Part shown: positions 36,575 to 39,387 of the stretch, one piece after another
Numbering within the stretch: position 1 is the stretch's first letter
How the letters are laid out: each line of letters opens with the position of its first letter
Origin: Pseudomonadota bacterium
Lineage (GTDB): Bacteria > Pseudomonadota > Alphaproteobacteria > Caulobacterales > Caulobacteraceae
DNA length: 64,000 nt
Assembly: GCA_040388315.1 (NCBI GenBank)
Contig: JAZKBZ010000021.1
Location: forward strand, 1,960 to 65,959
Reading direction: 5' to 3'
Notes under the pieces: model-generated
The model's input: the letters and a program-made list of their open reading frames with translations, nothing else
What the model was told of the DNA's origin: nothing
Databases searched by the model: none
Translations under genes and position numbers: made by a program

Positions 36575-38206
36575 GTGAGCGATCCAACCCCGACTCCGAC
36601 GTCCGCCCCCGCCAAGCCCGGCGGGATGATCCGCTCGTCGATGATCTATTCGGCGCTCACCCTGGTCAGCCGGTTCATGGGCCTGGCCCGGGACCTGGTG
36701 ATCACCGCCCGCCTGGGGGGCAGCTCCAATATCGCCGCCGACGCCTATTTCACGGCCCTGACCTTCCCTAACCTGTTCCGCCGGATCTTCGCCGAGGGCG
36801 CCTTCGCCGCGGCCTTCGTGCCCGACTATTCGCGCCGGCTGGCCAGCGACGGCCGCGAGGCCGCCGACGCCTTCGCCGCCGACTCCCTGGCGACGCTCGC
36901 GGCCGCCACCGTGGCGGTGACCATCGCCTGCCAGCTGGCCATGCCCTGGCTGATGATGGCCTACAGCCCCGGCTATATGAGCGACCCGGCCAAGTTCAAG
37001 CTGGCGGTGCTGCTCACCCAGATCACCATGCCCTACCTGCCCTGCATCTCGATCGCCTCGCTGTTCGCGGGCATCCTGACGGCGCGGGGCCGGTTCGTGA
37101 TCTACGGCCTCTATCCCACCATCCTCAACGTGGTGATGCTGATCGCGGTCCTGCCGCAGAAGGATCCCACCCAGGCGGCCTTCGCGGCCTCGGTGGGGGT
37201 GGTGATCGCCGGCGTCGGCCAGGCCGCCATCTGCTGGTGGGGCGCCCATCGCACCGGCGCCCGGGTCCACCTGAAGGCCCTGAAGTTCACCCCGGAGATC
37301 AAGGCCCTGGCCCGACGCGCGGTGCCCGGCGTGATCGCCTCCAGCGCCGTGCAGATCAACCTGTTCATCTCCGCCATCCTGGCCTCCCAGGTGGCCGGCA
37401 TGCGGGTCTGGCTGAACGTCGCCGAGCGCTTCTACCAGCTGCCGCTGAGCCTGGTGGGGGTGGCCATCGGGGTGGCCCTGCTGCCGCGGCTCTCCACCGC
37501 CTTCCAGCTGGAGGACCACGAGGACACCCAAGGCGCCATGGACCAGGCCATCGTCTTCGCCCTGGCGCTAAGCCTGCCCGCCGCCGCGGCCCTGATGGCC
37601 ATGCCGGTCTATCTGGCCGACGGCCTCTTCGCCCGCGGCGAGTTCACCCACGCCGACGCGGCCTCCTCCGGCGCCCTGATCTTCCACTATGGCTGGGGGC
37701 TGCCGGCCTTCATCCTGATCAAGATCCTGCAGCCGGCCTTCTTCGCCCGCGGCGACACCAAGACCCCGATGCGGTTCTCGTTGATCTCGGTGGGGGTCAA
37801 CATCGTGCTCGGGGTGGCGCTGTTCTACACCCTCGGCTTCCCCGGCATCGCTATCTCCACCGCCATCGCGTCCTGGGGCACCGTGGCTCAGATGGCGCTC
37901 CTGCTCTGGCGCCAGAAGGTCTATCGCCCCTCGGCCAAGGCCACCGGCAAGATCATCCGCGTGATCGCCGCCAGCACCGTGCTGGGCGTTCTGCTGGCGC
38001 TGGCCACCCACTTCCGGAGTGTCATCGAAGCGCCGTTGGCGGGCATCGGCGGCGCCAAGGAGATCACCGTCCTGGCGGTCTCCCTGGTGGGCGGCCTGCT
38101 CTATCCGGTCCTGCTGTTCGCCTTCGGCGGGGTCACCCCGGCGGAGGTGCGCGGGGCGCTGCGGCGGCGCAAGGGCGACGTGGCCGTGGCCGTCCCCGAC
38201 CTCTGA
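36575..38206 (+). CDS. murJ: Lipid II flippase MurJ/MviN
   Basis: SRFMGLARD, FPNLFRRIFAEGAFAAAF, ERFYQLP, FFARGDTKTP; many TM helices. Confidence 0.95.
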   Translation: MSDPTPTPTSAPAKPGGMIRSSMIYSALTLVSRFMGLARDLVITARLGGSSNIAADAYFTALTFPNLFRRIFAEGAFAAAFVPDYSRRLASDGREAADAFAADSLATLAAATVAVTIACQLAMPWLMMAYSPGYMSDPAKFKLAVLLTQITMPYLPCISIASLFAGILTARGRFVIYGLYPTILNVVMLIAVLPQKDPTQAAFAASVGVVIAGVGQAAICWWGAHRTGARVHLKALKFTPEIKALARRAVPGVIASSAVQINLFISAILASQVAGMRVWLNVAERFYQLPLSLVGVAIGVALLPRLSTAFQLEDHEDTQGAMDQAIVFALALSLPAAAALMAMPVYLADGLFARGEFTHADAASSGALIFHYGWGLPAFILIKILQPAFFARGDTKTPMRFSLISVGVNIVLGVALFYTLGFPGIAISTAIASWGTVAQMALLLWRQKVYRPSAKATGKIIRVIAASTVLGVLLALATHFRSVIEAPLAGIGGAKEITVLAVSLVGGLLYPVLLFAFGGVTPAEVRGALRRRKGDVAVAVPDL

Positions 38207-38247
38207 CGGACTTGCCCAAAGCGTCCGCGCGGACTATTCGCATCGCC

Positions 38248-38292
38248 ATGGCTTATCCGGACGCATTCTCCTGGCGATGGCGCAGCGCCTGA
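38248..38292 (+). CDS. Candidate Trp-containing leader peptide MAYPDAFSWRWRSA upstream of trpS
   Basis: ATG GCT TAT CCG GAC GCA TTC TCC TGG CGA TGG CGC AGC GCC TGA, ending 60 nt before trpS. Confidence 0.55.
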   Translation: MAYPDAFSWRWRSA

Positions 38293-38352
38293 TCCCGCTT
38301 CCGCGGCGCGCGACCGCGCGCCCCCACGTCCTCCGTTTCAAAGCCTGATCCC

Positions 38353-39387
38353 ATGACCGAACAAGCTCCCGCCGCCTATGCCGGCAAACGACGCGTGCTC
38401 TCCGGCGTTAAACCCACCGGCGATCTGCACCTGGGCAACTATCTCGGCGCCCTGGTGAAGTTCACCCGCATGCAGCACGAGGCCGAGACCTTCATCTTCG
38501 TGGCTGACCTGCACGCCATCACCGAGTGGCAGGACCCCGCCAAGCTGACCGCCCAGACCCGCGAGATCGCCGCGGCCTATCTGGCGGCCGGTCTGGATCC
38601 GAAGATCGCCACCATCTTCCCGCAGTCGGCGGTGACCGAGCATGCTGAACTGGCCTGGATCTTCAACTGCGTCGCCCGGGTCGGCTGGCTCGATCGGATG
38701 ACCCAGTTCAAGGACAAGTCGGGGAAGAACAAGGAGAAGGCCAGCGTCGGCCTCTACACCTACCCGGTGCTCCAGGCCGCCGACATCCTGCTCTACAAGG
38801 CCACCCACGTGCCGGTGGGGGACGACCAGAAGCAGCACGTCGAGCTGACCCGCGACATCGCGGCCAAGTTCAACCACGACTTCGACGCCCCCGGCTACTT
38901 CCCCCTGCCCGAGCCCATCCACCAGGGCGCCGGGGCGCGGATCATGTCCCTGCGTGACGCCAGCGAGAAGATGAGCAAGTCCAACCCCTCGGACGCCGCG
39001 CGCATCAATCTCACCGACGACGCCGACGCGGTGGCCCAGAAGATCCGCAAGGCCAAGACCGATCCCCTGCCCCTGCCGGAGACGGTCGATGAGCTGAAGG
39101 ATCGGCCCGAGGCCCAGAACCTGGTGGGCATCTACGCCGCCCTGGACGGCCGCACCTCCGCCGAGGTGCTGACCGAGTTCGCCGGCGAGGGCTTCGGCGC
39201 CTTCAAGCCCCGCCTCGCCGACCTGGCCGTCGCCAAGCTGGGGCCGGTGGGGACCGAGATGCGCCGGCTGATGGCCGACCCTGCCGAGATCGACAAGGTG
39301 CTGGCCGCCGGCGCCGAACGGGCCCGGGCCGCCGCCGCCCCGACGCTCGCCGAGGTGAAGAAGCTCGTCGGCTTCTGGGGCGCCTAA
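38353..39387 (+). CDS. trpS: Tryptophan--tRNA ligase
   Basis: [14 protein letters not shown] (HIGH), [24 protein letters not shown]. Confidence 0.98.

Follow-up and report, generated by a model that had tools for sequence, protein, structure and literature searches.

We have analysed a stretch of 64,000 nucleotides (nt) of DNA from a Caulobacteraceae genome (contig JAZKBZ010000021.1 of assembly GCA_040388315.1; 70% G+C), hereafter the window. In this window trpS, the gene of tryptophanyl-tRNA synthetase (TrpRS), is preceded by an upstream open reading frame (uORF) of 14 codons, the counterparts of which stand directly 5' of trpS in altogether 54 Caulobacterales leaders and share an invariant CGA-TGG-CG (Arg-Trp-Arg) close to their stop codon. 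We read the element as a leaderless leader peptide that senses charged tRNA-Trp and acts mainly on the translation of trpS, a reading that, taken as a whole, is plausible although a little short of probable. Its parts differ in strength: the uORF probably senses the charging of tRNA-Trp, the translational nature of the output step is a tentative proposal, and the direction of control would be that a stalled ribosome turns trpS on.

The leader ORF of the window (38248..38292, forward strand) starts with the ATG at 38248, ends with the TGA at 38290-38292 and encodes the peptide MAYPDAFSWRWRSA. Its TGG-CGA-TGG occupies 38272-38280, the first Trp codon lying at 38272..38274, and overlaps the 8-mer CGATGGCG at 38275..38282 (+), which consists of the CGA codon, the second TGG (38278-38280) and the initial two bases of the Arg codon that follows; the stop is found three codons past this second Trp codon. 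A gap of 60 nt separates the stop from the ATG of trpS (38353..39387, +; NCBIfam TIGR00233 trpS, tryptophan--tRNA ligase, 322.9 bits against a cut-off of 176.75). No GGAG, GAGG or AGGA precedes either the uORF ATG or the trpS ATG in the window, and trpS thus starts without a Shine-Dalgarno (SD) sequence, as in 47 of the 54 loci. The 14-codon uORF, its three codons, the distance to trpS and the lack of an SD are all present as an initial annotation of the stretch had described them.

The homologous loci were collected via similarity of the TrpS protein only, the motif not being used for finding leaders, and short ORFs were sought upstream of trpS in every retrieved locus. The sample comprised 80 species-representative genome loci, 80 metagenome contigs and the Caulobacter vibrioides locus (L082), which was retrieved via its own TrpS; a same-species reference contig of the window organism, L001, encodes a TrpS that is 100% identical to that of the window. 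A uORF in the same place was found in 26 of the 80 genome loci, in 27 of the 80 metagenome loci and in C. vibrioides. The carriers belong to Phenylobacterium, Caulobacter, Brevundimonas, Terricaulis-like and other Caulobacterales, with TrpS identities down to 62%, and the order murJ-leader-trpS is common to related loci including that of C. vibrioides. In the remaining alphaproteobacterial loci of the sample there was no comparable ORF, whichever Arg codons were allowed. All 54 leaders contain an intact uORF of 11-18 codons with N-terminal parts that are unrelated in sequence, and all 54 contain the 8-mer. Judged by this comparison, the conservation of the uORF is beyond chance.

The conserved unit is narrow. 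The first Arg codon is CGA in 54 of 54 leaders, a synonymous change never being seen at this codon, while the second Arg codon ends in C in 37 leaders, in G in 11 and in T in 6. Between 7 and 13 codons (mode 9) precede CGA and 1-7 codons (mode 2-3) lie between the Trp codon and the stop. Apart from R-W-R, the 54 peptides have no conserved residue, and no conserved Pro or Asp in particular. The codon before CGA is TGG in 22 leaders, and CGC, CGG, GGN, CAT, GTG, CCG or GAG elsewhere. Since it is TGG in only 22 of 54, the pair of Trp codons on which the initial annotation had based its proposal is a feature of a clade, and the conserved sensor is one Trp codon, the second, which is invariant. The same annotation was right about the intervening Arg codon: in the high-GC3 ORFs of the window (those rich in G+C at third codon positions), only 59 of 1834 Arg codons are CGA (3.2%), and CGA is absent from all 24 Arg-Trp codon pairs in window genes. 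The 8-mer alone is frequent in a window of this composition (20 copies on both strands), and only the copy in front of trpS lies within such a short ORF.

The uORF is associated with a promoter of conserved geometry. The promoter-like region of the window (38213..38241, +) consists of a -35 element TTGCCC (38213-38218), a 16-nt spacer and a -10-like CTATTC (38235-38240; or TATTCG, to 38241), which ends 7-8 nt 5' of the uORF ATG; relative to this ATG, TTG stands at -35 and TA at -13. A generic sigma-70 promoter scan made no call at the window leader. Across the leaders, TTG is found at -39 to -35 in 47 of 54 and TA at -15 to -11 in 53 of 54, with an SD-like tetramer 5' of the uORF ATG in only 5 and 5' of the trpS ATG in only 7. 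The arrangement TTGCCC-N16-CTATTC and the leaderless start that had been deduced from it are thus borne out, the latter also by mapping in C. crescentus. In strain NA1000 of this organism, a primary transcription start site (TSS) at 64487(-) is assigned to 'CCNA_03913, NEW' and a sigma-70 motif, TTGCCCTGCGCAGCGCAGAACGGTA, is listed at its -35 (Zhou et al. 2015, PMC4287350); it is the sole primary TSS listed for trpS. This motif corresponds to L082:1340-1364 and places +1 on the A of the orthologous uORF ATG at L082:1375. At the orthologous position of deposited C. vibrioides genomes, a gene of 15 residues is called with the translation MAVIGLYAPRWRGSH. Ribosome occupancy, which had been named as a check on the uORF, is on record for the orthologue: a ribosome profiling study of C. 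crescentus shows a 'putative small leader CDS on the trpS mRNA', that is, a coding sequence (Schrader et al. 2014, PMC4117421).

The window uORF is very probably the Phenylobacterium orthologue of this CCNA_03913-type element, and orthology together with promoter geometry suggests that the trpS transcript of the window is leaderless as well and starts at, or within a base of, the uORF A. Because the C. crescentus orthologue has been published, the existence and the leaderless status of such a leader are already known. The supposition of the initial annotation that none had been described for an alphaproteobacterial trpS therefore has to be withdrawn. A mechanism or a family-wide analysis of the CCNA_03913-type leader was not found in the searchable literature, where the term 'CCNA_03913' matched no paper. 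Some 370 nt into trpS, the published TSS table for C. crescentus also has an antisense TSS under cell-cycle regulation and an internal TSS in the sense direction (NA1000 63970(+) and 63989(-)).

The likely start site bears on a stem that had been drawn over the Trp codons. In the window, CATCGCCA (38241-38248) is indeed the exact reverse complement of TGGCGATG (38272-38279), but the CATCGCCA arm lies upstream of the likely start site and the pairing is not conserved; in L001, an A in place of the T at 38243 of the window is the single difference that breaks it. We rejected this stem, as it would lie outside the leaderless RNA, is broken in L001 and is not conserved. Likewise, the 10-mer GCCTGATCCC occurs at 38287 and again at 38343, as annotated, but is kept only in the closest relatives. 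UGAUCC is found at 38290-38295, at the uORF stop, and at 38346-38351, just 5' of the trpS AUG, and many relatives have a GAUCC or AUC box 5' of the trpS AUG. UGAUCC is the exact complement of GGAUCA, the 3' tail of 16S rRNA adjoining the anti-SD, and from its sequence it could be a site of non-canonical rRNA pairing for the SD-less start of trpS.

The eight invariant nucleotides include the wobble base of an Arg codon. Base-pairing was considered as a reason for their invariance and rejected, since the duplex energies of the 8-mer with downstream sequence were no better than those of shuffles (z of -2.2 to +0.8, in most cases close to 0) and the A of CGA usually stays unpaired. CGA is decoded through an I:A wobble pair (see also PMC10454642 and the papers on CGA codon pairs in yeast). 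With CGA in the P site while UGG is awaited in the A site, a single Trp codon could plausibly be given high gain. CGA-UGG may simply act as an inhibitory codon pair that lends one Trp codon the gain of a tandem run.

A stronger form of the same idea is +1 frameshifting at a hungry codon: with tRNA-Arg only weakly (I:A) paired to CGA in the P site and UGG unread, a Gly-tRNA would read GGC in the +1 frame, as at a Ty3-like CGA-U-GGC, whereupon the ribosome would cross the leader and end on an AUGA overlapping the trpS start, coupling trpS translation to the shortage of Trp-tRNA. This would account for all eight invariant bases, and we retain it as a low-probability reading because CGA is one of a small number of codons that, in the P site, permit +1 shifting of the Ty3 type in yeast (PMC5009743). 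The +1 frame of the window begins at 38279 (GGC GCA ...) and extends over 25 codons to a TGA at 38354-38356, which overlaps the trpS ATG as ATGA. In 44 of the 54 leaders, where 36 are expected, the +1 frame reaches or crosses the trpS AUG without an earlier stop, and it ends on AUGA in 25 of the 29 loci in which uORF and trpS are in the same frame. After weighting by cluster (the 54 leaders fall into 23 clusters), however, this excess is not significant (18.4 versus 15.1 of 23), and the outcome of a shift would differ among loci: 25 would end on the overlapping AUGA, 13 would give an in-frame fusion, 6 would pass out of frame and 10 would stop early, 9 of them at a distance of more than 12 nt from the AUG on its upstream side and one within 12 nt of it. 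No GC3 periodicity marks the tail of the leader as coding in another frame, and no bacterial precedent is known; a review of 2016 knew of no natural regulatory use of 'hungry-codon' frameshifting, of which this would, if true, be the first.

The remaining frame shows a bias of another kind. Because CGA followed by UGG necessarily creates an out-of-frame AUG, every leader contains one; in the window, it lies at 38277..38279 (+) in the -1 frame, and its ORF stops at the TGA at 38346-38348. The possibility that this internal ATG opens a second functional ORF was rejected, because such an ORF has anything from 2 to 35 codons among the leaders and no conserved end. In the 54 leaders, the stretch from the Trp codon to trpS contains 43 stops in the frame of the internal AUG versus 11 in the +1 frame and 7 extra stops in frame 0 (15.2, 5.4 and 2.3 after cluster weighting), and of the 19 stops that lie no more than 20 nt from the uORF stop, 18 are in the frame of the internal AUG. 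These frame-biased stops may limit stray translation of the leader tail.

The R-W-R core could alternatively act as a nascent-peptide arrest motif of the '+x+' type, perhaps one that senses free tryptophan or another small molecule and not the charging of tRNA-Trp. In macrolide-dependent arrest, R/K-x-R/K is the motif met most often, the nascent chain has 9-15 residues when the motif is reached, and the second Arg is kept as an amino acid with synonymous codons. Still, we consider arrest very unlikely, as the N-terminal sequence and the distance from motif to stop vary freely, the first Arg is fixed at the level of the codon and not merely of the amino acid, and the conserved unit can equally be read as a string of 8 nt. 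There is no Pro and no spacing to the stop codon of the TnaC kind either; with a variable Trp-to-stop distance, no conserved Pro or Asp and only R-W-R kept, the leader was rejected as a TnaC-type arrest peptide.

Downstream of the uORF, the leader RNA offers a hairpin but hardly a terminator. The hairpin GGCGCGC-GACC-GCGCGCC of the window (38305..38322, +; arms 38305-38311 and 38316-38322; -14.2 kcal/mol) is where it had been annotated. Past the uORF, 46 of the 54 leaders have a stable hairpin, meaning one of -8 kcal/mol or lower, and the median distance from its 3' end to the trpS AUG is 31 nt (24-37 nt in most). Only 3 of these 46 hairpins have a U-tract, that is, at least 5 U in the next 8 nt; in the window, there are at most 2 U in any 8-nt interval starting 0-2 nt past the stem, and a generic terminator scan made no call. 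Since a U-tract is so rare, a canonical intrinsic terminator is not the conserved output, and the absence of a U-tract terminator remarked on in the initial annotation is general. A permissive cmscan against Rfam (37700-38900, E up to 10) gave no relevant match, neither T-box nor Trp_leader, with a chance mir-132 as the only hit; a T-box riboswitch was rejected on this ground. Relative to dinucleotide shuffles of the leader, the folding was not unusually stable. RNAalifold found no consensus structure when 25 leaders were aligned with MAFFT, and for the window clade it gave structures without covariation. Of the checks proposed for the murJ-trpS gaps, conservation was upheld for one Trp codon, and covarying stems did not emerge from these alignments.

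Classical transcription attenuation, in which the GC hairpin would serve as an intrinsic terminator without a U-tract, as has been proposed for trpL2 of Streptomyces, is improbable on these data. The stable hairpin of most leaders agrees with it, and in the window clade alternative structures can be drawn in which the uORF end (GGCGCAGC) pairs with the 5' arm of the hairpin and the 8-mer with the 3' arm. The corresponding GGCGC/GCGCC pairings are possible, but they show no covariation and energies no better than shuffles, and a conserved antiterminator was not found. In the geometry of the window, moreover, a ribosome stalled at UGG would not block the hairpin. Published RNA-seq coverage of C. 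crescentus in M2G medium was 409 per bp just past the TSS and 179-256 per bp within trpS, a fall of about 2-fold at most between leader and gene, which is little for a terminator.

The same fall could reflect Rho-dependent premature termination, which we regard as unlikely, though as the main rival. According to this explanation, the C-rich leader left naked after termination at the uORF would load Rho and transcription would stop early in trpS, while a ribosome held at CGA-UGG would cover the C-rich stretch near the stop, as in tnaC, and let RNA polymerase pass. Past the uORF stop, C exceeds G in all 54 leaders (C 0.44 and G 0.24, as compared to 0.38 and 0.29 in the trpS coding sequence), two C-rich stretches flank the GC hairpin like rutA-boxB-rutB of lambda tR1, and the leader is degenerate in sequence and has no U-tract and no excess folding stability. 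The distance from UGG to the stop is short and conserved, and the SD-less start of trpS would leave an opening for Rho. On the other hand, a ribosome at UGG leaves a tail of about 60 nt uncovered, pairing of this tail with the head of the RNA (see below) would hide it when no ribosome is stalled, the opposite of what is needed, and the drop of RNA in M2G is only modest. Rho or bicyclomycin data for the locus and genome-wide Rho data for Caulobacter were not found in the searchable literature.

The modelling weakly favours a translational route. The first 16 nt of the leaderless RNA are complementary, in a lineage-specific manner, to the 34 nt before the trpS AUG, for example as GGCUU/AAGCC in the window, as GGUCUUC/GAAGACC in a Caulobacter locus and as GAACAUGAGAAC/GUUCUCGUGUUC in a third locus (L039), in whose clade RNAalifold recovers a head-tail closing helix with two inner hairpins. 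Cognate head-tail duplexes reached -12.4 kcal/mol versus -9.9 kcal/mol for permuted partners (P<0.0005; none of 2000 permutations attained the observed value in each of 20 draws with one representative for each of the 23 clusters). In the window, the C-rich, G-poor tail ahead of trpS (38323..38352, +) includes CGTCC (38327-38331) and AAGCC (38341-38345), which are complementary to the segments GGACG (38259-38263) and GGCTT (38250-38254) at the 5' end of the uORF, and the minimum-free-energy structure of the leaderless RNA pairs this end with tail segments. Ribosome footprints were modelled as unpaired constraints on the leader RNA. With UGG in the A site, the opening energy of the segment from -32 to -7 of trpS fell by 1.4-1.9 kcal/mol (p about 1e-5), and with the ribosome at the stop codon by only 0.34 kcal/mol, which was not significant. 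An equilibrium model of start occlusion gave no consistent effect for the first 27 leaders and a modest one with 54 leaders and the upstream segment.

We therefore propose the following sequence of events for sensing through translation. Transcription of trpS would start at, or within one base of, the A of the leader ORF, and a 70S ribosome would translate this ORF without a 5' leader. Near its end, the ribosome would meet the rare, slowly decoded CGA and then UGG, with the next Arg codon and, 1-7 codons on, the stop ahead of it. When charged tRNA-Trp is scarce, be it by low Trp or by low TrpRS activity, it would dwell where CGA occupies the P site and UGG the A site and mask the inner uORF, which in the free RNA pairs with the pyrimidine-rich segment ahead of the trpS start; the inner uORF being masked, the trpS start region would stay open and more TrpRS would be translated. 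With charged tRNA-Trp at hand, the ribosome would terminate and leave, and the 5' end would re-pair ahead of trpS, closing both start sites, an OFF state that Rho-dependent polarity on the untranslated C-rich leader may reinforce. By analogy, the leaderless poly-Cys short ORFs (sORFs) of mycobacteria lend support to this scheme, as the same logic has been proposed for them.

Several results weigh against the scheme. With a ribosome stalled at UGG, the first 9-15 nt of the RNA stay exposed, so that the outer head-tail helix could still form, and at the start site proper (-14 to +13) the modelled stall had a small effect of 0.5-0.8 kcal/mol. The window itself is a poor example, its own head-tail pairing being no better than non-cognate combinations and its start-site opening amounting to 5.4 when free and 6.2 when stalled, that is, showing no effect. 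The leaders of the window and of C. vibrioides, with z values of 0.05 and 0.30 against shuffles, have no excess folding stability. Pairing alone leaves the invariance of CGA, and of CG after UGG, unexplained, and the link of Trp to trpS expression in these organisms is a proposed one.

The head-tail helix would protect the 5' end regardless of Trp limitation, and the element might not sense Trp at all but be a constitutive device, for the loading of ribosomes on an SD-less gene or for the protection of the mRNA 5' end, or encode a trans-acting peptide, a role that the conservation of R-W-R would then serve. The TSS of the C. crescentus leader is strong and not cell-cycle regulated, and the trp leader peptide peTrpL of Sinorhizobium meliloti has functions in trans (PMC7298713). 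We nevertheless hold such a role to be quite improbable, considering that the invariant Trp codon stands ahead of the gene of the Trp-specific synthetase and, in the window, nowhere else, that the remainder of the peptide is free to vary, and that the trp and trpS leaders of other phyla provide analogies.

Among known systems, CCNA_03913 of C. crescentus resembles the window most closely, sharing the position between murJ and trpS, the promoter geometry, the ...R(CGA)-W-R... ending (MAVIGLYAPRWRGSH) and an SD-less trpS. It is translated (PMC4117421) and leaderless with its TSS at the A of ATG (PMC4287350); it contains a single Trp codon, as against two in the window, and differs in the other parts of peptide and leader. 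The C. vibrioides leader is likewise GC-rich and followed by an SD-less trpS. Among the trp and trpS leader peptides of Escherichia coli, rhizobia and Streptomyces, the closest match is trpL2 of S. lividans (PMC8079986). This trpS/trpRS1 leader, MMTRTCTQLWRAA, has 13 codons with a single Trp codon, then Arg, and a stop two codons later; like the window element, it is leaderless, followed by two GC hairpins without a U-rich stretch, and located ahead of a TrpRS gene (PMC8079986, PMC1262725). Unlike the window element, it comes from another phylum, has no detectable sequence homology and no Arg(CGA) before Trp, and has been described as a transcription attenuator.

The gene controlled by trpL2 is an auxiliary one for an antibiotic-resistant TrpRS, unlike the housekeeping enzyme considered here. 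Attenuation at trpRS1 of S. coelicolor was reportedly shown by Vecchione and Sello in 2010. The trpL leaders of E. coli and of rhizobia (trpE(G)) also have 14 codons with Trp codons near the C-terminal end, followed by Arg close to the stop (WWRTS-stop, WWWAR-stop), and sense charged tRNA-Trp by the dwelling of the ribosome. They differ in being SD-led, in their two or three tandem Trp codons, in having an antiterminator and a terminator with a U-tract, and in controlling biosynthesis genes; they are represented in Rfam as Trp_leader. Of the hallmarks of a classical attenuator, the window has the cognate codons near the stop and lacks the U-tract terminator and the Rfam match.

Two further systems illustrate possible outputs. 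The mycobacterial poly-Cys sORFs ('Cys ribulon', Canestrari et al., bioRxiv 10.1101/834739) are leaderless, stand in a GC-rich genome and lack an obvious terminator, and their stalled ribosome is proposed to block a duplex that occludes the downstream start, which matches the head-tail and masking results obtained here. They differ in having runs of Cys codons and biosynthetic operons as targets, and in that their duplex was demonstrated by mutagenesis, whereas that of the window is a predicted one. The tnaC leader of E. coli is a short leader ORF with an essential Trp and C-rich RNA by the stop, and its output passes through Rho and not through an intrinsic terminator. Its peptide keeps a fixed W12-D16-P24 spacing and stalls at the stop codon on free Trp; in the family described here, 1-7 codons separate Trp and stop.

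Some loci depart from the common layout. In the window itself, the gene upstream of the leader is murJ (36575..38206, +; NCBIfam TIGR01695 murJ_mviN, 341.7 bits against a cut-off of 235.55; putative start codon taken from the ORF list). In L008 (2300-2500), which derives from a metagenome-assembled genome of Phenylobacterium, both promoter and uORF have been lost and the GC hairpin with the tail GGACCTTGCGCC...CAGAAGCC remains directly after the murJ stop; the promoter being lost, trpS could be read only through read-through from murJ. A palindromic insert of about 50 nt (GAGCATTTTTCGATCCGATAACCGCTTCACACTTATCGGAAAATGCTC-like) is present in the trpS leader of L006 (2336-2500) and, upstream of the uORF, in the promoter region of L016. 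From its sequence, it looks like a small mobile repeat of the miniature inverted-repeat transposable element (MITE) or repetitive extragenic palindromic (REP) type.

A Trp leader in front of trpS will hardly surprise the specialist. The combination found here, namely an invariant single Trp codon in a fixed CGA-UGG-CG, the absence of a terminator, a helix of cognate specificity between the 5' end and the trpS start, and frame-biased stops, was not encountered in the searchable literature. To our knowledge, most bacteria outside the Firmicutes have no known way to match the output of TrpRS to the charging of tRNA-Trp. The element would be a compact candidate for such a sensor, made of a promoter, a 45-nt ORF and a single Trp codon, and it is kept across an order that contains a genetically tractable model organism in which the start site and the translation of the leader have been mapped. 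As such, it bears on the regulation of leaderless mRNAs, on the switching of SD-less genes and on the use in bacterial regulation of codon-pair effects that are known from yeast. Should it turn out to be merely a variant attenuator, the gain would be more modest, an annotated family of regulatory uORFs for the genomes of Caulobacterales.

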